Source: an uncultured Bacillales bacterium (GTDB lineage: Bacteria > Bacillota_I > Bacilli_A > RFN20 > CAG-826). Taken from it: DNA of 64,000 nucleotides. The position numbers were made by a program, and so were the translations under genes. Of this stretch, positions 2,908 to 45,427 are shown one piece after another. The stretch spans positions 9,555 to 73,554 of the forward strand of contig CAJJXG010000006.1 of assembly GCA_905197045.1 (NCBI GenBank). The letters run 5' to 3'. The notes under the pieces are model-generated. The model was given only the letters and a program-made list of their open reading frames with translations, did not search any database and was not told the origin of the DNA. Position 1 is the first letter of the stretch. Each line of letters opens with the position of its first letter.

Positions 2908-5900
2908 CTAATTTATCTAAAGGTATTTCTGCTTCATAACCTCTACGTATACTGTCAAACTCAAAATAATATCGCACTGTAATAGATGTATAGCCTTCAT
3001 CAACACTTTCGATTGTAACAGGACAATTGTAAATGTTCAAAGTAAGGAAGCTCCAGTGAGATACATATCCAGAATCATAAGTCACAGAAAAATATAATTC
3101 AGCAGAATTTAAATGCACTACATTACCGGTTTTAAAGTCTTTACGAGAATTTTCCACAAATTGTTCACTTGGTATGGCATCACGTAAATCAAAGTCGCTT
3201 GTATAATAAACGAACAAAGAAATCTCTTCGCTAGAATTATTCTCAATATTTTGGACCTTTAATTTTAATTCTTGTCTTTCAGAAGAAAATCTATCAATCT
3301 CGTCTCCGTTTAAAACTTCTAAAATTGAATAAGTAGATATAACTTTCTCTCTATATCCTTTACTAGTTTCAATTCGTTGAACTTTATAAACACTATTACC
3401 AATTAAATACTCAGGTAAAACTGCAGAAGGAAAATAATTATAATCAGTCGCTCTTTCAATCGAAAACTCTTCTGTTATTGTAGGTTTTCCAAAATCTAAG
3501 GTGACTTCTTTTGATACCTTATTATGATTATCATCAACAAGATTAAGAGTGAGAGTATGTTCACCTTCTATAGATGCCATCTCTTCAAATTCTTCCTTAG
3601 TAAGATTTGTGCTTTCAACAAGATAATTAACTTCACCTAGATTCTCTCGACTAGTTATATCGTTACTATATCCAGGGCATGTATAGTTTTGATATGAAGT
3701 AATACGAACTGTTGATTCTAAAAATTCTTCATAACTCATTCCTTGATAAGTAAGACCTTCAAAACGGATTTCTTCATAAACCGGTCCATCTTTTTCAAAT
3801 ACTCGGTAACTAAAAGCGTGATAATTATTATTTACTTTATAGTAAGCAATAAATTCACCACTTTCTTCGGTTGAAAAATTAATAAGATCTTTAGTGGTTA
3901 TAGTTGTTTCGTTGTAATCATAATCTACAATAGTAACCTCTTCATAAACGTTGCCTTTTATTAAATTACTCCAGTTCACATGCAAATAATAATAATCGTG
4001 CTCTTTATCGCAAACATAATATTTAAAAGCAAAATCAAGATTATTATATGTAAAAGTAGCAATTCTTGTGCCATATGTAGAAGTATCAAAGCCTTCGATG
4101 TTTAACTTATCAAAAGCGACCCTTTCCATACTATTTCCATCATTAATTTCTAAATAAAAATTATTATAGTTATCATTTAAATTAAATTTAAAATCTTTAT
4201 TTCCACTAATGAAATATTGAATAACCTGGTTAGGCTCTTCAGGAGCTAGTTCTTGTAGGAATTTTTGGATATGATCTGCTTCTTCTAAACTAATATTATT
4301 GGCATCTAATTTACTAGCATATTCAAGCTCTGCGACAACATCTTTAGCAGGTAAGCCAAATTCAGGTAGCATTTCTGAATAATAGTTATGGTAAGAACTT
4401 AAAGTAAGACAGTATATTGCTTTGTCATTATTAACAAAGAAATCCATAAAATTAGTAACGTCTTCTTTTATGTCACTAGCATTATTTCCAAAAAGAGTAA
4501 ATGTAGATACAAGCTTTTTTGAAAAAACAACAAAAGTTTTTACAGAATTATCCCCACCACTTTGATTTTTAAATAAATCAAGGAAGTTCTTATATTCTTC
4601 TTCGGTTAAGCTTTTTGCTAAAGTTGCAAAATAGCGTATCGCTGCATAAACTTCTTTATAATACTTTTTCGCCTCATTAATTACTTCTTTGTATTCTGAA
4701 TCAATAAATAAAGTCATTTCAGGTTCTGCAAAAAAGGCATTGTAATTAAGAATAAACTCATAATTTTCTTCAACAAAATCTAAATAAAATAAGTAAAACT
4801 CCTTAAAAGCATCAAAACTTATAAAACTATCAGCAAGATAATTTCCTAACTTAACAATCGATCTTGTCATTAATTCGCTATCATTATAGCTTCCTTTATT
4901 AAAACTTGTGATTATATAAATAAAATCATAGATTGTATCTTTACCATATTCTTTTGAAATCTCAGTTTCAATCAAACTATAAAGAATTTGAGCAATATAA
5001 GTGGAAAGTTTGGAAAATCCTTTAGTAAAAGAACTCCCATCTAATTTAACTGAATTATCTTTAAGATTTTGATAGAAATTTTTAATATCTTGATTAGGTG
5101 AATTTTCGATTATGTTATCAAAATTTGTAATGCTTAATGAGCCATAGTTTGCGCCAAATATGTTATATCGCGTATTTGATAAACCCATTTCCATGGAAAA
5201 GCTATATAAACTTGAATAGGTAGCACTTACTATTTCAATAAATTCATCTTTATTAAAGGTTTCGTAAACTCCCATAGCCATTGAATAGACAAGTCTACTA
5301 AATCTTTCAGCATTCATTGAATCAGAATTCTTAAAAAGTTCTTCAAAAAAAGCTAATATCTTTTCATTTCGACTTCCTTCTCTTACAACTTTTTCAAATG
5401 TTTCTTTTTGTAAGCCGTTTCCAATGAATAAATTTATAAGCATTTGCGCCGTTTTATCATTTTTAAACTTGCTTTTTACTTTGCCATTTTCGTCAAAAAA
5501 GTCTTTAGCATATTCTGCATTTTTTACGTCTTCTGCTAGATTATCTTCAATAATTTGGACAAAATCATTAAATGAAAAATCAGCATCGACTACAGGATTA
5601 TAAGGGACAAAATTAAAGCCGCCTTTTAAATATTCAGGTGCTTCACAAACGGTTCCTTTACTTTTTACAGTGATTGTTAATTTATTTGATTCTTTGTCAT
5701 CAAGTTTAGCGCTAATTGTAGTTGTTCCTTCTTTTAAAGCTAAAACAACTCCATCATTAGAAACGCTAGCAACACTAGAATCGCTACTTACAAAAGTTAC
5801 TTTTGTTTTGTCTCCATTTGTTTTTAACTCAATTGTTAAACTTTCACCAACTGCTAATTCACTTTTGCTCGCCGAAATTTCTAACGTTAAATTTTGATCG

Positions 5901-22407: not shown

Positions 22408-22992
22408 TTAGTTTATGTATTTAATAATTTTTGCTGGATTACCTGCAACAATAGCATTATCTGGTACATCTTTTGTAACCACACTTCCTGCTCCAATAAT
22501 TGCATTTTCTCCTATTGTTACACCTGGTAAAATAACACTTTTTGAGCCAATCCAAGCGTAATCTTTAATAACGATTTTTTTAGGAATTAAATCATATCTT
22601 TCTTCTTTTTTAAATCCATGATTTAAAGAAGCAAAAATACATTCGTGTCCAATATTTACATAATTACCAATTTCAATTCCGCCTTGATCTTGAAAAGCAC
22701 ATCCTGCGTTTATAAAAACATGTTTCCCTATTCTTAAGTTTTTTCCAAAATCAATATAAATTGGTGGAAATAAAGAAAAGTTATCATCTAAGTTTTTCCC
22801 AGTAATTTCTTCCATTAATTTTATTAATTCTTTTTCATCGTGATATTTAGTATTGATTTCAAAAGTTAACTTACGTGTCTCACCACTAATTTTATGCATT
22901 AACTCTTTATATTCATTACCTTGTTTTAAAGTTTTTCCTTCATTTAAATAGTTTAATAAATCATTTAAAGATACTTCTTTCATCTTAATCAA
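22408..22992 (-). CDS. maa: sugar O-acetyltransferase, hexapeptide-repeat family (Maa/LacA-like)
   Basis: 194 aa with an N-terminal Mac domain. Left-handed beta-helix hexapeptide repeats are present ([29 protein letters not shown]). Confidence 0.85.
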
Positions 22993-23908
22993 TCCTTTCT
23001 TTTATTACATCATCCGCCATTAATCTACCAATTAATAAGGATGAATCATCACTATGTTTTAAATAGTTATTTTTAACTTCTTCTTCATTAAAGTTTGCAT
23101 AGCAATAGCGACAAAGCGACTTACAAGAATTATATGCTCCAATATCAACAGTTTGGACACAATTACAATTTTCATTATCTCGATGAGTTCTTCTTTTAAA
23201 TTTAACAGTTTTATTAAGCTCATTCATTAAAGAAGAAGCAAATTCTTTTGTTAAACAACTTCCTTTAATAAAACCATATTGTGTTAGATTTTCTTTTTCT
23301 CCACAAGTAAAAATTTTAAGGTTATTTTCACTAGCAATCTTAAAAAATTCTTCTCCTATTAATTTATAATCTTCTTCTTTAAATTTCTCTAAATGTAGAT
23401 ATTTATCGTTATTATTTAAAACGTTTTTATATAAATCAATAAATGAAATCACCACATTATCAGCGCTTCCACTTATTTCACTTGCTAACTTTTTAAAAGC
23501 TTTTATGTGATAAGAGATAGTGTATTCCTTACTTTTTAAAATTGGATCAAAGCGAATAAAAATACGTTCCTTTCCATAGCGCTTTCCTAAATAACGAACT
23601 GCTTTAATTATTTCTTTTTTATCTTTAGCAATTTTAGGTTCAATATCTTCCTTATATGGTGTTATTGTAATATGAAAAATCAAAGGAACATTTTTTAAAA
23701 GTGAATCTAATTCATCAAGATATGGTAAAAATGGTATTGGATTTTTAGTACAAAACATAATAATATCGACCATATCAAAATAAATTCGTGATACAAGTTT
23801 TGGATTATAAGGATTTCTTGTATCAACATAGCCTTCTTTTACTCGATTTATAAACCATTTTGGATAGTAGGTTAAAATATCACTTCTTCCGCTTACAAAT
23901 AAAACCAT
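22985..23908 (-). CDS. DUF1848 domain-containing protein
   Basis: 307 aa. The N-terminus [33 protein letters not shown]... and [15 protein letters not shown] match the DUF1848 pattern. C-terminal cysteine cluster [15 protein letters not shown]. Confidence 0.75.
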
Positions 23909-23962: not shown

Positions 23963-24141
23963 TTGCATATTTTTATAGCGACTTTTTGAATGATTTGCAT
24001 TTTTTTCAAGCGAGTTTTTAAGAACTTTGCATATTTTTATAGCGACTTTTTAAGTTATTTGCATATTTTTATAGCGACTTTTTGAATGATTTGCATTTTT
24101 TTCAAGCGAGTTTTTAAGACTTTTACATATTTTTGTAGTGC
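23963..24141. repeat. tandem array of six 31-33-bp units (pattern A-B-A'-A-B-A'')
   Basis: Unit A is TTGCATATTTTTATAGCGACTTTTTGAATGA and unit B is TTTGCATTTTTTTCAAGCGAGTTTTTAAGAAC. The A+B pair (~62 bp) recurs almost exactly 96 bp later (23963-24025 vs 24059-24120). The last unit is degenerate. Confidence 0.85.
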
Positions 24142-24585
24142 AAAATGAGGATTCTAAGAATTATACTGTTGAAGCATGTCTGAAAACATTAAGTAGAATT
24201 GAGGCAACAAGGAATCCTTCAACCAATGAATACAACGTATTGTATGAATTAACTAAACACCAAAAAGAGATATTAAATTGCCTTGGATTAACTCAAAAAA
24301 TAGTTAATAAAACATATAAATACTGATTTAGTTATCAAAATCCTAAAAGTTTAGGACATAAATAACCTCACTTTTTAGCCACGATACCACGATAAATTTT
24401 AAAGTATCTAAAAATGTTGTTAACTGTTTCGGATATAAAAAATACGATGGTTATCGCATGTTTGCCTGTACGTATTTTCAAGGCTCTAAGGATTAATCGT
24501 GGCTTTTTCTAAACAAGGGACTGACATTCCCCCAAAAGTATTATAAATTAATATGAGATACGTCAAAACAAGGGAGGTAAGACCT

Positions 24586-25614
24586 ATGAATCCGTATTTT
24601 ATCATCAGCAATGCAAAGACCTTTGCTTTTTCCGCAGAAAATCCCACAGGAACCAGAGCAGGCGGTTCCAGAGGAGGGGATTGCACCAAGCTTCGTCCAA
24701 CCGTGACGATTCACGCAGGGGAGACTGTGACACTGGTGGACACCAATGGGCCAGGAATAATCCAGAGCATCTGGTTTACCGGCTACGTTGGACACAGCTT
24801 TGTGCTCCGCATTTACTGGGACAACTGCGAATATCCTTCTGTGGAAGCTCCCATTTCCGCATTTTTCGGGACAGCATACGATGAGAATTTTGTGGACAGG
24901 GATGGAAAATATGCGGTGCTCAATTCTGCAAAGATCCTAGTGGCTCCCGGACGAGGACTGAGCTGTTACTGGGAGATGCCTTTCAAAAAGCACTGCCGAA
25001 TCACCATGGAAAACCGCGGTGAAAAGGATCAGGACCTGTACTATATCATCACCGGCTGCCACTGTGAGGTGCCCGACGAGATCGGGTATTTCCATGCTTC
25101 CTACCGTCAGGAGCATCCCGTTCAGAAGGGACGTTCCTACACCATCATCGACGGCATTCAGGGAAAAGGCCAGTTCGTGGGCGTAACCCTGGCCACCGGA
25201 ATAAACGGAAACAACACCTGTTGGGTGGAGGGAGAAGCCAGAATGTACATAGACGATGACAAATATCCTTCCATTCACTATACAGGCACAGAGGATTATT
25301 TCGGCGGCTCCTACGGCTTTGGAAATGATGTTCAAATCAAATCCTATCAGACTTACAGCGGCCTTTACAGCGGAATGTACGCCATCTACGGTAATAACCG
25401 TGAATTTTACAACGGCCAGCAGAGATTTCTGCTATACCGCTTCCACATCGCTGACCCGATTCATTTTGAGACCAAATTCCGCATGACCCTGGACAATCTG
25501 GGATGGACCGGGCCACGATACGATGACTATACTTCCTGCGCATACTGGTATCAGACGCTGCCATCCGCACCACTGAAACCACTGCCGTCTGACAAAGAGA
25601 TGATTATGAAGTGA
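24586..25614 (+). CDS. DUF2961 / glycoside hydrolase family 172-like protein on a GC-rich foreign cassette
   Basis: The track ORF starts at 24553. The ATG at 24586 (MNPYFIISN...) has SD GGGAGG 7 nt upstream. DUF2961 hallmarks: GPGIIQSIWFT, WEMPFKKHCRITMEN, EGEARMYIDDDKYPSIHYTGTEDYFGG. G+C is visibly above 50%, against below 30% in the flanks. Confidence 0.85.
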   Translation: MNPYFIISNAKTFAFSAENPTGTRAGGSRGGDCTKLRPTVTIHAGETVTLVDTNGPGIIQSIWFTGYVGHSFVLRIYWDNCEYPSVEAPISAFFGTAYDENFVDRDGKYAVLNSAKILVAPGRGLSCYWEMPFKKHCRITMENRGEKDQDLYYIITGCHCEVPDEIGYFHASYRQEHPVQKGRSYTIIDGIQGKGQFVGVTLATGINGNNTCWVEGEARMYIDDDKYPSIHYTGTEDYFGGSYGFGNDVQIKSYQTYSGLYSGMYAIYGNNREFYNGQQRFLLYRFHIADPIHFETKFRMTLDNLGWTGPRYDDYTSCAYWYQTLPSAPLKPLPSDKEMIMK

Positions 25615-25653
25615 CCGCCACAGGCGAATGGGTAAAAAACATTACAAAAAATT

Positions 25654-25688
25654 GGGATGTCAAGCAAAAATACTTGACCCCTTTTTTT
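25654..25688 (+). terminator. rho-independent terminator of the GH172 cassette
   Basis: Stem GTCAAG / CTTGAC (~25659-25664 / 25673-25678), extendable by GGG/CCC. Followed by TTTTTTT (~25682-25688). Confidence 0.55.
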
Positions 25689-25744
25689 ATATAATCTTCG
25701 TTGGCTGACGGCAGCAGACTGCCTTATTTTTGACCGTAAAGAAA

Positions 25745-27013
25745 TCAAGGTTTTAAGCAGCCTAATGGGACTACATAAACGTCATCATCTCTTTTGTAGG
25801 CATATTTATTTTTTGTAATAACCATTAAGTATGCTGGCTGCTCAATTAAATCGTCTTTAATCTTTTTTAAATTACTGGCAGCTTCTTCTATATCGTCATC
25901 ATCGCCAAGTTTTATTTCTATTAATCCAAATTCACCATCACGATAGACAATAACTGCATCACATTCTCTACCTAAACTATCACGATAATGGTAAATAGAA
26001 GCATCGATAACCGAAGCGTAAATCTTTAAATCTCTAATTGCAAGCGATTCAAAAAGAAATCCAAATAATTTCATATCTTTAAATATTGATTGAGGCGTAA
26101 GGCCTAAAGAAGCTACAGCAATCGATGAATCAATAAAATATCTGGTATTTTTCGTTCTAATCGCTGTTTTACTTCTTAAATTTGTATTCCGAGCTAAAAC
26201 CTCATCAATTACAAACAATCTTTGAAGTGCTGAAAAATACTTTTCAAACGTTTTTACATCAATATTTGCGTCATTAATAATTGTAGAATCTGGACACTGA
26301 GTACCAATATTTCTTGCATACGAGCGTAATATTTTCTGCGATGTTAAAATATTTTTTCTAATTGCTAAATCTTTAAAAGTAAATAAATCATCTTGGTATA
26401 ATATCTCAAAATAATAATAAGCTTGCGCAAGAGCAACTTTTTCGCTTTCTCCTATAGATAATGGCCGGCCACCTCTACAAATATAAAATGCATAGTCAAA
26501 AATATTTTTCTCACAAGCGCCAAAATTAAAATTTCCATTTTTTAAAGAAGAAAGAGAAATTGTTCCATTACTTTCGCCGCTTTCATAAAGAGAGAGTGTT
26601 CTCATCATTTTTCGACAAATTCGACCATTTCCAGTATGTTCGTCTAATCCGTCTGCACTAATACTTGATGATAATTTATTAGTTACACTTCCTGTTAAAA
26701 TGTATTCGCCAAATTCACAATTTTTGTCAACTTGAATTTTAATTTCATTCCAAATAAAAGGTATAAGTTGCCATTCATCAATTAAAATTGGTTTCTCTCC
26801 TTGATTTAAAAATAAATCAGGAGCATTTTTAGCAAATTCAATAATTTGAGATCTCGTTTTTAAAGGCAGAAGTTCTATTATTGTTTTAGCATGTCTTGCA
26901 CATGTTGTTGTTTTACCACACCATTTTGGGCCAACTACCAATACAGCGCCTTTACTTTCTAAAGCAAATCGTAAAATTTCATCAAATAATCTTGGAATAT
27001 AGGTCTTTTTCAT
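25745..27013 (-). CDS. AAA+ ATPase with C-terminal DUF4143 (COG1373 family)
   Basis: 422 aa. Walker A VVGPKWCGKTT, Walker B ILIDEWQ. The DUF4143-type C-terminus (YHYRDSLGRECDAVIVYRDGEFGLIEIKLG) looks like a PD-(D/E)xK fold. Paralog of 43677..44972. Confidence 0.85.
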   Translation of the reverse strand: MKKTYIPRLFDEILRFALESKGAVLVVGPKWCGKTTTCARHAKTIIELLPLKTRSQIIEFAKNAPDLFLNQGEKPILIDEWQLIPFIWNEIKIQVDKNCEFGEYILTGSVTNKLSSSISADGLDEHTGNGRICRKMMRTLSLYESGESNGTISLSSLKNGNFNFGACEKNIFDYAFYICRGGRPLSIGESEKVALAQAYYYFEILYQDDLFTFKDLAIRKNILTSQKILRSYARNIGTQCPDSTIINDANIDVKTFEKYFSALQRLFVIDEVLARNTNLRSKTAIRTKNTRYFIDSSIAVASLGLTPQSIFKDMKLFGFLFESLAIRDLKIYASVIDASIYHYRDSLGRECDAVIVYRDGEFGLIEIKLGDDDDIEEAASNLKKIKDDLIEQPAYLMVITKNKYAYKRDDDVYVVPLGCLKP

Positions 27014-27052: not shown

Positions 27053-27167
27053 AATCCCAAAAATATTAGTAAAATAATCCCAAATTTATGAGTAAATTAA
27101 TCCCATAAATATTATTAAATTAATCCCAGAAATGTTAGTAAAATAATCCCAAAAATATTAGTAAAAA
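27053..27167. repeat. five tandem 23-bp direct repeats (iteron-like) upstream of the COG1373 ATPase
   Basis: AATCCCAAAAATATTAGTAAAAT / AATCCCAAATTTATGAGTAAATT / AATCCCATAAATATTATTAAATT / AATCCCAGAAATGTTAGTAAAAT / AATCCCAAAAATATTAGTAAAAA. The period is exactly 23 bp and the array starts ~40 bp upstream of the ATPase start codon. Confidence 0.9.
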
Positions 27168-27333
27168 ATCAAAAGTAGTTAGTTCTTAAAGGTAATTCAA
27201 CAATGATCGTTTTCGATATAAAATTCACTTAGTTAAAATAGTAAAACTAATAGATAGCTATTTAAATTAGCCTAATATAGCGCCTAGATTATAATCGTGT
27301 TTTACTTAAAAAGCCTGCAAATCAAAAAGTTTT

Positions 27334-29095: not shown

Positions 29096-29172
29096 CTCCT
29101 AGTAGCTCAACTGGATAGAGTGTTTGGCTACGAACCAAGAGGTTGCGGGTTCGACTCCTGCCTAGGAGGCCA
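29096..29172 (+). tRNA. tRNA-Arg (anticodon ACG), CCA encoded
   Basis: Hand-folded cloverleaf. Acceptor CTCCTAG/CTAGGAG; D-arm GCTC..GAGT; anticodon stem TTTGG/CCAAG with loop CTACGAA (ACG); T-arm GCGGG TTCGACT CCTGC; discriminator G, then CCA. Confidence 0.9.
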
Positions 29173-42161: not shown

Positions 42162-43511
42162 ATGATTATTGGAAGAGAAACAGAAACCATCGAATTCAAA
42201 AAAAGTACCAGCGAATTAAAAGAGGCGCTTCAATCCATATCTGCTATTTTAAACAAGCATCAACATGGCGTTATTTATTTTGGTGTAAAAGACAATGGCG
42301 AAGTCGTAGGACAAAAAATTGAAAAAGATACATTAAGAGATATCTCAAATAAAATAAGAGAACAAATCAAACCAGAGTGTTTCTATAACGTTGAAAAGAG
42401 AAACGACGATGAGAATAACACTTTTATAGAAGTATCTTTTAGTGGAGAAAGAATTCCATATTCAGCTAATGGTAAATTTTATTTAAGATTTTCAGATCAA
42501 GATCGATTAATGACAAATGAGGAACTTGAAAAATTTTTTCTTAATATTCAAAAAAATTATTCTATATGGGAGAACGAAGATTCTTTTACTAGTATAAACG
42601 ATATAGATGAAGCTTTACTTGAAAAGATGATTAATAAAGGTTACGAAAACAAACGACTTCATTTTAAATATACTAATTCCTATGAAGTTTTAAAAAAGTT
42701 AGGATTAATTGCTAAAGGTAACCAAAACCTCAATAATGCAGGTAACGTATTATTTTCATCCTTAAATCCAATAACTCTTAAATTAGCCACTTTTGCGTCA
42801 GAAACAAAAGAAACATTTTTAAAACTTGAATATTTTGAAGGTAATATCTTCACTTGTATTGAAAAAGGAATTTCTTATGTTTTAAACGCAATAAATTGGA
42901 ACGTAACTTTAGATGGTTCACCTTTGAGAAAAGAAACTCCAGAGATTCCTAAAGAAGCATTAAGAGAGATTATAGTTAACGCTTTTAGTCATGCTCGTTA
43001 TAGAAGTTCGACTACTTTTGAAATTGATGTTTTTAAAGACCGTGTAACAATATATAGTCCTGGCTACTTTCCATTAGGATACACTCCTGAAGATTTTGCA
43101 TACAACCATGAAGAACCAATTATGTTGAATCCTAAGATTATTCACGTTTTATTTAAAACGTGTCAGATTGAATCTTTTGGTTATGGATTTGAAACAACTT
43201 TTAAATTATGTAAAGAATTTTCGGTACCATATAAGTACGAGAACACAAAATCAGGCTTTAAATTTATTTTTTATAGACCTTTATCATTAAAATATTCAAC
43301 TTTTGATTTAAACGATACTGAAACCAAAGTTTTAAGGCAAATTATAAAAAATTCAACAATTAAAATTAAAGAAATAGCCGCTAATATCAATAAAAGTGAG
43401 AAAACAGTATCACGTGCTCTTAAAAAATTAAAAGAAGAAAACTTTATATATCGTGAAGGCGATGATTTTAGAGGTGAATGGATTGTTAATAAGGATTTAT
43501 ATAAAAAATAA
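42162..43511 (+). CDS. AlbA_2 (Schlafen-like) + HATPase_c_4 + C-terminal wHTH protein (COG2865 family, often annotated as a 'RecG-like putative DNA-binding protein')
   Basis: 449 aa. The N-terminus GRETETIEFKKSTSELKEALQSISAILNKHQHGVIYFGVKDNGEVVGQ is the AlbA_2 signature. The central REIIVNAFSHARY motif matches HATPase_c_4. The C-terminus is an HTH (TIKIKEIAANINKSEKTVSRALKKLKEENFI). Confidence 0.8.
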   Translation: MIIGRETETIEFKKSTSELKEALQSISAILNKHQHGVIYFGVKDNGEVVGQKIEKDTLRDISNKIREQIKPECFYNVEKRNDDENNTFIEVSFSGERIPYSANGKFYLRFSDQDRLMTNEELEKFFLNIQKNYSIWENEDSFTSINDIDEALLEKMINKGYENKRLHFKYTNSYEVLKKLGLIAKGNQNLNNAGNVLFSSLNPITLKLATFASETKETFLKLEYFEGNIFTCIEKGISYVLNAINWNVTLDGSPLRKETPEIPKEALREIIVNAFSHARYRSSTTFEIDVFKDRVTIYSPGYFPLGYTPEDFAYNHEEPIMLNPKIIHVLFKTCQIESFGYGFETTFKLCKEFSVPYKYENTKSGFKFIFYRPLSLKYSTFDLNDTETKVLRQIIKNSTIKIKEIAANINKSEKTVSRALKKLKEENFIYREGDDFRGEWIVNKDLYKK

Positions 43512-43676: not shown

Positions 43677-44972
43677 TCAAGGTCTTAAACAATTAATTGG
43701 AATAATAAAGATACCTTCTTCGTTTTTATAGCAAGCTCCACTTGAAGTAATAATTGCTTTAAATTTAGGAAGTTTTGCTTTTGCTCGAACTAATTTGTCT
43801 TCAAATCTAGTAAGAGATCTAATTCCATCTTGAATATTTTCAGGACTATTAATTTTAACTTCTATCGCACCGAATTCACCATTTGGTAATTGAACAATTA
43901 TGTCGACTTCTTGACCGCTGCTATCCCTATAATGTTTTAAACTAGCGCCAATACTTTCAGCATAAACTGAGACATCTCTTACAACAAAGTCTTCAAAGAA
44001 AAGACCAAAAGATTTAATATCATTTAATAAATCATCAGGTTTAATATTAAGTGCTTCGCAAGCAATAGATGTATCAATAAAATGTCTAGTCGGAGCACAC
44101 CTTACTGCTACCGAAGATCTTAAATTGATGTTATATGAAGGCATATCATATATTAAAAATAACTTTTTCAATATAGTCTCATAATCATTAAAAGTGTTTT
44201 CGTCTAATTTGCTTCTTTCGCCAGATTCTAAAATATCATTTATCATGGTAGTTTTTTTGGCTTGTGTAGATATGTTACGAGCATAGGATTTTAAAATCAG
44301 TTTTAATAAATCTATATTTTTATTCTTGTAAAAGTCATTATATTCGTTATTCTCTCTAAATAAACCTGAATAATAATTGTCTGTAATTATCAAAGAAATG
44401 CTTTTTTCTGAACAAACGGATAAAGGCCAACCGCCACGGCAAATTAAAAAGGCAATATCAAATAAAGTAATTGGATTATCGTTTTCAAGCAAAGTTTTGA
44501 AATTATCTCCACCATGAAACAAATCTTCTATTGATACAATGCCAAAAGATTCTTCTGACTCATAAAGAGTGAATGGCTTTATATTTAAATCGACTATTCT
44601 TCCAGCACCAGAATGTAATATCTCTGAACTATTAAGTGGCATGGTGCTACCTGTTGTTAAATACTTTCCAAAAACATATTCATCATCCAAATCTTTTTTA
44701 ATTTGATTCCACACATCTGGACACCTTTGCCATTCATCAATTAAATGTGGTTTATCGCCTTCTATAGCCAATCTAGGATTTCCTTTGATAACCATTAATG
44801 TATTATTATCGCTTAAATAAGTTATCGATTTAGCATATCTTTTGCATAATGTTGTTTTGCCTGAAAATTTTGGACCATTAACTAACACACATCCAGAAGT
44901 TTTCATTTTAAGTTCAAGAACTTTTTCAATAATTCTATTTTTATATAAGCCATCTTTAATCATCATATCCAT
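43677..44972 (-). CDS. AAA+ ATPase with C-terminal DUF4143 (COG1373 family), paralog 2
   Basis: The track ORF (442 aa) starts at a TTG at 45005. The in-frame ATG at 44972 (MDMMIKDGLYKNR...) aligns better with paralog 1. Walker A VNGPKFSGKTT, Walker B HLIDEWQ. C-terminus HYRDSSGQEVDIIVQLPNGEFGAIEVK. Both paralogs end in a ...P[LI][GN]CL[KR]P tail. Confidence 0.85.
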   Translation of the reverse strand: MDMMIKDGLYKNRIIEKVLELKMKTSGCVLVNGPKFSGKTTLCKRYAKSITYLSDNNTLMVIKGNPRLAIEGDKPHLIDEWQRCPDVWNQIKKDLDDEYVFGKYLTTGSTMPLNSSEILHSGAGRIVDLNIKPFTLYESEESFGIVSIEDLFHGGDNFKTLLENDNPITLFDIAFLICRGGWPLSVCSEKSISLIITDNYYSGLFRENNEYNDFYKNKNIDLLKLILKSYARNISTQAKKTTMINDILESGERSKLDENTFNDYETILKKLFLIYDMPSYNINLRSSVAVRCAPTRHFIDTSIACEALNIKPDDLLNDIKSFGLFFEDFVVRDVSVYAESIGASLKHYRDSSGQEVDIIVQLPNGEFGAIEVKINSPENIQDGIRSLTRFEDKLVRAKAKLPKFKAIITSSGACYKNEEGIFIIPINCLRP

Positions 44973-45005
44973 ATTATAAATATCTATTTGCTTAAAAACA
45001 ATCAA

Positions 45006-45073
45006 ATTCAGTGTTTTGAAAGTTTTAATTCAGTGTTTTGAAAGATTATGATTCAGTGTTTTGAAAAGTAATA
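45006..45073. repeat. three tandem 22-23-bp direct repeats, proximal cluster upstream of COG1373 paralog 2
   Basis: ATTCAGTGTTTTGAAAGTTTTA / ATTCAGTGTTTTGAAAGATTATG / ATTCAGTGTTTTGAAAAGTAAT. The core TTCAGTGTTTTGAA contains the inverted half-sites TTCA-N6-TGAA. Confidence 0.9.
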
Positions 45074-45192
45074 ACAAGTACTAAAAATTTGGGATTAAAC
45101 TATAAAAATATTGTAAAAAAGTAGATTTTATAACGATTTTACTATCTTTGATAAAGCAAATACTTAATTTTCTGAATTAAATGCTTATTCAT

Positions 45193-45261
45193 TTTCAGTG
45201 TTTTGAAATGTTTTGTTTCAGTGTTTTGAAAGGTTTTAATTCAGTGTTTTGAAAATTATTA
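45193..45261. repeat. three further tandem copies of the same 23-bp repeat, distal cluster
   Basis: TTTCAGTGTTTTGAAATGTTTTG / TTTCAGTGTTTTGAAAGGTTTTA / ATTCAGTGTTTTGAAAATTATTA. Separated from the proximal cluster by ~120 bp of unique AT-rich DNA. Confidence 0.9.
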
Positions 45262-45427
45262 TTTCTAGATCTTAAATTAGACTAAACCGCTTTTAATTAG
45301 TATCATTTATAAATGTTCATTTTAATTATGGCTATAATCTTCTGATTCTATTTCTCATTATTTTTCTATAAAAATTTACAATTCATTCTTTTACAAGAGA
45401 GAAGGTAATTTATAAAATAATAAAGAT

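Follow-up and report, generated by a model that had tools for sequence, protein, structure and literature searches.

The 64,000-nucleotide stretch analysed here (hereafter the window; contig CAJJXG010000006.1 of assembly GCA_905197045.1, positions 9,555 to 73,554, from an uncultured Bacillales bacterium) is AT-rich throughout, except for a short block that carries a single gene of glycoside hydrolase family GH172 (DUF2961). The question raised by this locus is how a gene of such composition came to lie there. A first reading of the letters, made with no database search (the sequence-only reading), had left the choice between a very recent acquisition from a higher-GC donor and a misassembled or contaminating block. 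The analysis shows that the block is real and horizontally acquired, and not an assembly error. Taking into account all the evidence presented below, we hold it to be very probable that a single gene entered from a pool of higher-GC gut genomes by illegitimate integration next to an insertion sequence (IS), and that it was spread later by homologous recombination.

The G+C content of the whole window is 28.9% (300-bp windows: mean 0.289, standard deviation 0.047). Values of 40% or more are found only in the 300-bp windows starting between 24501 and 25501 (0.44-0.54), and change-point analysis delimited a segment from 24631 to 25632 with 51.3% G+C versus 28% in both 5-kb flanks. At third codon positions, the G+C content (GC3) of the GH172 open reading frame (ORF) is 57.7%, about 12 standard deviations off that of the 42 other window ORFs of at least 150 aa (17.3 ± 3.3%, maximum 24.2%). 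Tetranucleotide distance computed in 1.2-kb windows peaks at the GH172 block (z = 11), with no comparable window elsewhere. The jump in composition noted in the sequence-only reading is real, and so is the pile of spurious ORFs between 24486 and 25748 (eight ORFs of 60 aa or more that overlap one another on the two strands), an expected result of high G+C content. The jump had been said to end exactly at the stop codon of the neighbouring ATPase gene (25745), but the block ends about 24 nt before it. When compared by blastn with loci of other genomes (L002-L006; L numbers designate such loci and contigs) and with 80 metagenome loci, the block was found to extend from 24516 to 25721 (plus strand, ~50% G+C). 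Both by homology and by composition, this segment is foreign DNA.

The GH172 protein was used as query in a scan of one genome per species (GTDB representatives). Copies with at least 94% amino acid identity are present in at least 13 species representatives, at loci of 32-62% G+C, in genomes labelled Oscillospiraceae, Lachnospiraceae, Clostridiales, Faecalibacterium sp. CAG:74, Eubacteriales, Firmicutes and 'Bacilli'. The DNA shared with them is limited to window positions 24516-25721, a block of 1.2-1.4 kb, and the flanks are different at every locus. Nucleotide identity to the window block is 96.7% for L002, 96.1% for L003, 93% for both L004 and L005, and 91% for L006. As had been predicted for a BLASTn search, near-identical DNA is found in Clostridia-type genomes: 96-97% in an Oscillospiraceae metagenome-assembled genome (MAG) and in another MAG, and 91-93% in Lachnospiraceae, Clostridiales and Faecalibacterium contigs. 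A megablast search of the block against plasmid and phage collections gave no match, and a known vector was not identified in these collections. The scan of IMG/VR returned one match, L101 (IMGVR_UViG_3300029713_000383). It was considered as a phage carrying GH172 and rejected, since what it holds is a prophage that has a large serine recombinase and has integrated into a copy of GH172. In this predicted viral contig (region 4431-6441), the recombinase gene (Resolvase and Recombinase domains) ends 35 nt before GH172 sequence starting at codon ~197. From this arrangement, the GH172 gene seems to serve as attachment site for a prophage or integrative element.

Most copies are preceded by the 3′ end of a GH32 gene, kept in nested lengths. 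In L122 the GH32 gene is complete (462 aa, N and C domains) and lies 64 nt upstream of GH172. With respect to the GH172 ATG, and in L122 coordinates, the left ends of the copies lie at -869, -501, -424, -335, -184, -162, -70, -62, -59 (the window), -39 and -15; the right ends range from +15 to +403 (L003 scale). As the copies retain nested lengths of the GH32 3′ end, the element has no fixed ends, and the block is a piece of a GH32-GH172 operon that was severed at other points in each of about 13 contexts and is devoid of termini of its own. About 190 bp shared upstream had been a candidate for the end of a larger mobile element; it was rejected, these nucleotides being the GH32 3′ end in nested lengths.

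To recover the site as it was before the insertion, related AT-rich contigs were searched for through homologues of the left neighbour of the block, a native DUF1848 gene (22985-23908, minus strand; Pfam). Two of them, L089 and L090, whose flanks are 83-85% identical to the window in nucleotides, contain the DUF1848 gene, a 32-bp tandem array and the ATPase stop codon, without GH172 or any GC-rich DNA. As L089 and L090 carry both flanks adjacent to each other, the flanks of the window belong together and the site is empty in its relatives. Relative to these empty sites, the insertion spans 24139-25721 and comprises an IS remnant, a spacer and the block, and not the GC-rich part alone. The array (23963-24138, 5.5 copies, consensus TTGCATATTTTTATAGCGACTTTTTAATGAT; detected by TRF) abuts the ATPase stop codon in L089 and L090, which lack the insert, and it therefore marks the left edge of the insertion. 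The cassette had been described as flanked by tandem-repeat arrays and an ATPase; array and ATPase are both there, with the qualification that the left array is native and not imported. On the right side, the junction follows GGCAGCAGACTG, and native sequence resumes (25722-25744, by comparison with relatives) 3′ of the convergent ATPase gene, an AAA_14/DUF4143 gene (25745-27013, minus strand; Pfam). The latter is native as well, being 83-84% identical in nucleotides to its L089 and L090 orthologues and having the same C-terminus; its stop position (25745-25747) was unaltered by the insertion. The 32-bp array is always directly 3′ of a DUF4143 ATPase stop codon in related genomes, and in L090 it lies between tandem ATPase paralogues; it could be a regulatory or recombination-prone site.

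The left part of the inserted module is an IS1634-family remnant (24138-24364, plus strand), cut at its 5′ side against the array and consisting of the last ~62 transposase codons (orf62, 24138-24326) and ~38 bp of the right end. orf62 matches positions 433-482 of the 483 of NCBIfam NF033559 (E = 2.7e-4); P0242, a 103-aa version found elsewhere and 85% identical to orf62, matches positions 392-481 (E = 1.2e-10). A full DDE transposase of this kind has ~480-600 aa, and we classify the segment on its sequence as a remnant rather than an element. The same 225 bp (24140-24364, 90% nucleotide identity) are found again in L093-L099, where they lie close to rpsD and ezrA at an unrelated locus; as this match ends at ~24364, the right end of the IS is placed there. 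Neither matching terminal inverted repeats nor a target duplication was found for the remnant, the left end of which is deleted; no second copy exists in the 64-kb window or at any locus with the block, and a tblastn search of orf62 against plasmids gave no match. The remnant is followed by an AT-rich spacer of 151 bp (24365-24515), absent from L089 and L090, present in L100 and without match at any other locus, which was assigned to the module. The left junction of the block itself coincides with the first base of its -35 hexamer.

L100 was assembled independently (Logan) from another run. Its flanks are 89.4% identical in nucleotides, and it contains the array adjoining the IS remnant, the spacer (97.2% identical) and the first 70 nt of the block. 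Its left junction is identical to that of the window, and the contig ends at the position matching window 24585. Window and L100 are 97% identical over the module, with 10 mismatches in 367 nt versus ~39 expected at the divergence of the flanks. As the module is significantly more alike than its flanks, either it is younger than the split between the window and L100 lineages or it was exchanged by recombination through the flanks. Within the L100 spacer (~2994-3027) there are ~26 extra nt resembling a local tandem duplication (TTTTTAGCCACGATAC... / TTTTTAGTCACGATACC), present in single copy in the window (~24371-24378).

Upon having established these points, a route for the acquisition can be proposed. 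The donor pool consists of Clostridia-type gut genomes of ~48-60% G+C, in which the gene originally lay behind GH32. A segment of ~1.2 kb with promoter, Shine-Dalgarno sequence, GH172 ORF and terminator would have left such a GH32-GH172 locus and entered an AT-rich (29% G+C) human-gut bacterium, in the intergenic region just behind the 3′ end of its DUF4143 ATPase gene. Since there are no mobility genes and no fixed ends, and the GH32-GH172 lengths are nested, integration most likely occurred by illegitimate recombination, perhaps with the help of homology or of an IS, at a variable hot spot that ISs visit. The module (IS remnant, spacer and block) would then have passed from one related AT-rich lineage to another, its flanks serving as the substrate of homologous recombination. 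Selection for the gene together with its imported promoter, Shine-Dalgarno sequence and terminator may have favoured repeated integrations; because it imports its own expression signals, the gene could work in any Firmicute host. Its product, encoded among carbohydrate genes, would contribute one more step to the salvage of sugars.

Movement of the block is not restricted to the window. In L002 (9000-11900) it lies in an islet of ~30-35% G+C within a contig of ~50% G+C, and cuts short an AT-rich ORF, so that ...GSVTRGCFRKYAFCVNKK runs directly into the GH32 remnant. Because the L002 block lies in such an AT-rich islet, pieces of flanking DNA must travel with it. Transfer thus seems to occur also out of AT-rich genomes into GC-richer ones, with flanking DNA carried along. 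L074 (31.6% G+C, labelled uncultured Bacilli) carries in its nucleotides 1-250 the 3′ end of the block, with a right junction at ~+35 after the stop codon and unrelated flanks, and is an independent acquisition by a second low-GC lineage.

The proximity of a transposase remnant raises the alternative that the block was delivered by the IS, as cargo of an IS1634-based composite or one-ended unit coming from another AT-rich genome, most of the IS having been deleted later. Composite transposons and ISEcp1-type one-ended units are known forms of IS-adjacent gene capture. The window locus resembles them in that the transposase remnant is upstream of the block (151 bp) and in the same orientation, and in that IS and downstream DNA form one module: remnant, spacer and block are a single insertion relative to L089/L090, and are equally conserved (97%) between window and L100. 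Moreover, other copies adjoin IS21 (L110), IS4/5 (L114) and IS3 (L111) elements, and the L002 block has brought AT-rich flanks into a ~50% G+C contig. It differs from those systems in that there is no second IS copy bracketing the cargo, no alternative right end and no target duplication, and in the family of the IS. IS1634-family elements are not known to mobilise flanking DNA, which we count against this alternative. In addition, the right end of the IS (~24364) has no counterpart at the right end of the block, inverted repeats were not found, the same remnant occurs without the block in L093-L099, and the IS types vary between contexts. Delivery by the IS is for these reasons considered unlikely.

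A second set of alternatives assumes a mobility system dedicated to the cassette. A long-range inverted repeat, detected in L003-type copies only, surrounds the stop codon and the terminator (25582-25714, plus strand; arms 25582-25598 and 25698-25714). This imperfect palindrome of ~135 nt folds better than shuffled sequences (z -3.7 in the window, -5.0 in L003) and might be taken as the recombination site of an integron-like or trans-mobilised cassette; a single gene on ~1.2-1.4 kb in many unrelated contexts would agree with that. Its right arm is however absent from the abundant Faecalibacterium-type L006 clade and from further contexts, several of which end before it (+15 to +78), so that the palindrome cannot be a general recombination site. 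The ends of the copies are nested, and the upstream GH32 fragments point to a piece of an operon and not to a unit with its own termini. A GTTGGCT box is one base off the GTTRRRY core and has no RYYYAAC partner; there is no attC with a consensus core at a fixed boundary, and neither an integrase nor a cassette array is found nearby. Searched with a permissive E-value, Rfam gave no match in the window region and only chance-level matches in L003. We deem an integron-like cassette highly improbable. Only slightly better placed, and still very doubtful, is a broader proposal in which the GH172 block is an expression-ready mini-cassette actively mobilised in trans across gut Firmicutes of widely differing G+C content by an unrecognised mechanism, such as a recombinase acting on the palindrome or capture of IS1634 type; were it true, the spread would not be a matter of repeated chance illegitimate recombination.

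No integrase or intact transposase gene lies within ±10 kb, as the sequence-only reading had stated, although the latter had overlooked the orf62 remnant just upstream. Neither the genes called between 14.6 and 35.6 kb of the window nor the further large ORFs that were scanned gave a match to a recombinase family. The tRNA scan found none at the junctions, the sole tRNA of the window (Arg, 29096-29172) being 3.4 kb off. In the search for flanking direct repeats, terminal inverted repeats, target duplications and attC-like sites, only chance-level short repeats and the 3′ palindrome appeared, and a junction-spanning hairpin (25710-25723) followed by a T-run was no better than shuffles. With no integrase, adjacent tRNA or flanking direct repeats, the locus does not have the makings of a classical genomic island, and the most fitting description of the DNA unit is that of a small islet, horizontally acquired and lying beside a decayed IS.

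Could the assembler have spliced a high-coverage Clostridial fragment into an AT-rich contig? The block does disturb assemblies. Ten contigs of the species scan begin or end inside the GH172 gene, and in the human-gut metagenome set 13 of 80 contigs break off 36-67 nt beyond the block boundary. MAG and metagenome contigs that start or stop in the block or at its edge are L015, L035, L042, L071, L072, L074, L077-L080, L115, L145, L146, L149, L153, L156, L163, L167, L176, L179 and L181. Such breaks are the signature of a repeat that co-resident genomes have in common and that interrupts assemblies. Because contigs break at it, the bin or MAG labels of the contigs bearing copies are suspect, an example being contigs of 48-60% G+C labelled 'Bacilli'; this 1.2-kb inter-genome repeat undermines both the binning and the taxonomic labels of its carriers. 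Over 21 kb, L001 and the window do not differ at all (100% identity), and for that reason the two may not be independent. Against a splice stands the adjacency of both flanks in L089 and L090, which shows that the contig was not pieced together from two genomes, and the recurrence of the left junction in L100, from another run and another lineage. Furthermore, the exact GH172 protein is encoded on at least four other contigs with the same neighbours and gene order; the exact ATPase protein is also found on at least four contigs, with the same size distribution, and these contigs, of differing lengths, carry both proteins in the same order. A fragment spliced in from an abundant donor should match that donor, but 23 substitutions of the window copy are private to it. 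A chimera or contaminating block, one of the two options left by the sequence-only reading, is therefore extremely improbable, and since the block is genuine, the contig is reliable. That the gene is native and merely of unusual composition, for instance through constrained codon use, is virtually discounted, since only its intactness and its place among carbohydrate genes would fit, and it is refuted by the empty sites of the closest relatives. A GC3 12 standard deviations from the host mean also speaks against it, as does 97% nucleotide identity to genomes whose G+C content is 48-62%, when even relatives differ by 11-15% in their native genes.

Horizontal acquisition followed by homologous spread is then the explanation retained, and the divergence accumulated since arrival bears on its age. 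Of the 23 private substitutions of the window copy, 17 are GC to AT and 4 AT to GC; the 5′ untranslated region of the L100 copy is intermediate between donors and window; and synonymous divergence (dS) between the window copy and the closest known copy, L002, is 0.051. The acquisition proposed at the outset stands, but its qualification as "very recent" has to be tempered in view of these substitutions and of a dS of 0.05. The bias of the private substitutions was considered as proof of residence in an AT-rich host and rejected as weak evidence, the same bias being present in L004.

Several points weigh against this explanation or limit it. L004, in a context of 48% G+C, shows the same excess of GC-to-AT changes (19 vs 4). 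The physical continuity of block and flanks rests on replicated assemblies and synteny with relatives, not on reads or coverage. The right junction is seen only in contigs with an identical ATPase, which are perhaps close strains or overlapping samples. The mechanism of integration is deduced from negatives (no recombinase, no target-site duplication, no fixed ends), and the IS remnant does not abut the block, 151 bp lying between them, so that any role of the IS is putative. A "cross-class transfer" is not established. Finally, dN/dS on the window branch is 0.32 versus 0.04-0.11 for deeper pairs. This raised value fits relaxed constraint or simply a young branch, and the gene may be of little use to its host.

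The GH172 gene (24586-25614, plus strand) codes for 342 aa and is intact, with the catalytic Glu, Glu and Asp kept (Pfam, PDB alignments). The longest reading from the first ATG, GTG or TTG would extend over 24553-25614 and give 353 aa; the true start is ATG 24586, which is the start used in all homologues. The longer reading exists because of a C-to-G substitution common to window and L100, and not found in Clostridial copies, that creates the upstream ATG (24553). The description of a self-contained unit with its own signals was borne out, and a promoter-like site could be added to it. The Shine-Dalgarno sequence AAGGGAGG (24570-24577, plus strand), 8 nt 5′ of the ATG, is kept in all copies. 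Upstream of it lies a promoter-like site (24521-24549, plus strand; CTGACA, 17 nt, TAAATT), a consensus match with a presumed promoter function; the -35 hexamer is CTGACA in the window and TTGACA in donors and L100. Downstream, a hairpin (25654-25681; dG -10.3 kcal/mol, z -3.2) followed by a U-run resembles an intrinsic terminator (25654-25688, plus strand). It lies inside the block and is kept in most copies.

The protein matched the Pfam profile DUF2961/PF11175 with E = 1.8e-79 and 267 bits (cut-off 27) over profile positions 3-235 of 235, and its precomputed domain record lists PF28588, PF28589 and PF11175. From the profile and the catalytic residues the protein is assigned to GH172, the family equated with DUF2961 in the sequence-only reading. 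GH172 is characterised by retaining alpha-D-furanosidase activity and by hexameric or dodecameric assembly. Enzymes of difructose-dianhydride/fructofuranosidase type had been named for the family; the closest solved relative is an exo-alpha-D-arabinofuranosidase and not a difructose dianhydride I (DFA I) enzyme. This relative is ExoMA1 (MIAR_33200 of Microbacterium arabinogalactanolyticum, PDB 8IC8; PMC10509167), aligned over residues 8-339 with E = 4e-57. alphaFFase1 of Bifidobacterium dentium (BBDE_2040, PDB 7V1V, a DFA I synthase/hydrolase; PMC8605356) is more distant (E = 2e-28, alignment in three pieces, W267 opposite a Cys). In that enzyme E270 (within W-G-E-G) is the acid/base, E291 (within GTEDYF) the nucleophile and D292 the adjacent residue (PMC8605356); phmmer places WVEGE of the query on E270 and GTEDYF on E291/D292. 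The window protein shares with ExoMA1 its length class, the W-x-E-G-E and GTEDYF motifs and the lack of a signal peptide (none was seen on inspection of the N-terminus), and with alphaFFase1 the family, the equivalents of E270, E291 and D292, and again the lack of a signal peptide. The subgroup of alphaFFase1 was set at >47% identity and >79% coverage (PMC8605356). Four window residues are rare among 115 homologues (C96T, N126S, I249V and V318C); N126 is invariant in that set, and Ser occupies the position in alphaFFase1 and 4KQ7.

ExoMA1 is a characterised intracellular, exo-acting retaining enzyme, and the same is predicted for the window protein. The latter is probably an intracellular retaining exo-alpha-D-furanosidase active on alpha-D-fructofuranosyl and/or alpha-D-arabinofuranosyl sugars. 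The two differ in context: ExoMA1 belongs to a D-arabinan utilisation locus of an actinobacterium, and the window clade comes from a GH32-linked operon of gut Clostridia. The LacI-GH32-GH172-ABC operon of B. dentium handles DFA I and inulobiose (PMC8605356). GH32 lies directly upstream of GH172 in B. dentium as well as in the ancestral-type L122, and since the ancestral pairing mirrors that operon, alpha-D-fructofuranosides would by analogy be the favoured substrates. The window copy differs in having neither a GH32 partner nor a dedicated transporter; the Pfam scan and the gene annotation found no GH32 next to GH172 in the window. The case suggests that salvage of alpha-D-furanosides (difructose anhydrides derived from caramel or inulin, D-arabinofuranosides) is selected across many gut Firmicutes.

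Transfers of carbohydrate-active enzyme (CAZyme) genes in the gut are usually described on integrative and conjugative elements, plasmids or phages, or as whole polysaccharide-utilisation loci. The present locus is like them in its near-identical DNA in many co-resident species, its compositional mismatch with the recipient and its CAZyme cargo, and differs in that a single expression-ready gene is concerned, without mobility genes and with nested ends. Pre-insertion sites, shared junction and ancestral operon were all recovered. It is a clean and datable case of a single CAZyme gene moved between gut bacteria of widely differing base composition without mobile-element machinery. No report of GH172/DUF2961 transfer was found in the literature consulted. 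Recent exchange of CAZyme genes among gut bacteria is already well known, and the case is an ordinary one that will not surprise specialists.

Three further observations concern the remainder of the window. Tandem arrays of 23-bp units lie directly upstream of the starts of both AAA_14/DUF4143 ATPase genes (25745-27013 and 43677-45005), at 27053-27170, 45005-45074 and 45193-45265, and the units differ between the two paralogues (AATCCCAAAAATATTAGTAAAAT vs AATTCAGTGTTTTGAAAGATTAT). A second variable region is located beside the sole tRNA of the window: the ~11 kb between 29180 and 40380, with a PMI-like gene, a phosphoglucomutase gene, a two-gene ABC exporter-like pair and a histidine kinase with its response regulator, are absent from L089, where ~400 bp lie between the matching flanks. 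The second DUF4143 ATPase gene is adjoined by a gene for a Schlafen AlbA_2 / HATPase_c_4 / wHTH protein (42162-43511), and the two may be a defence-type or regulatory pair.

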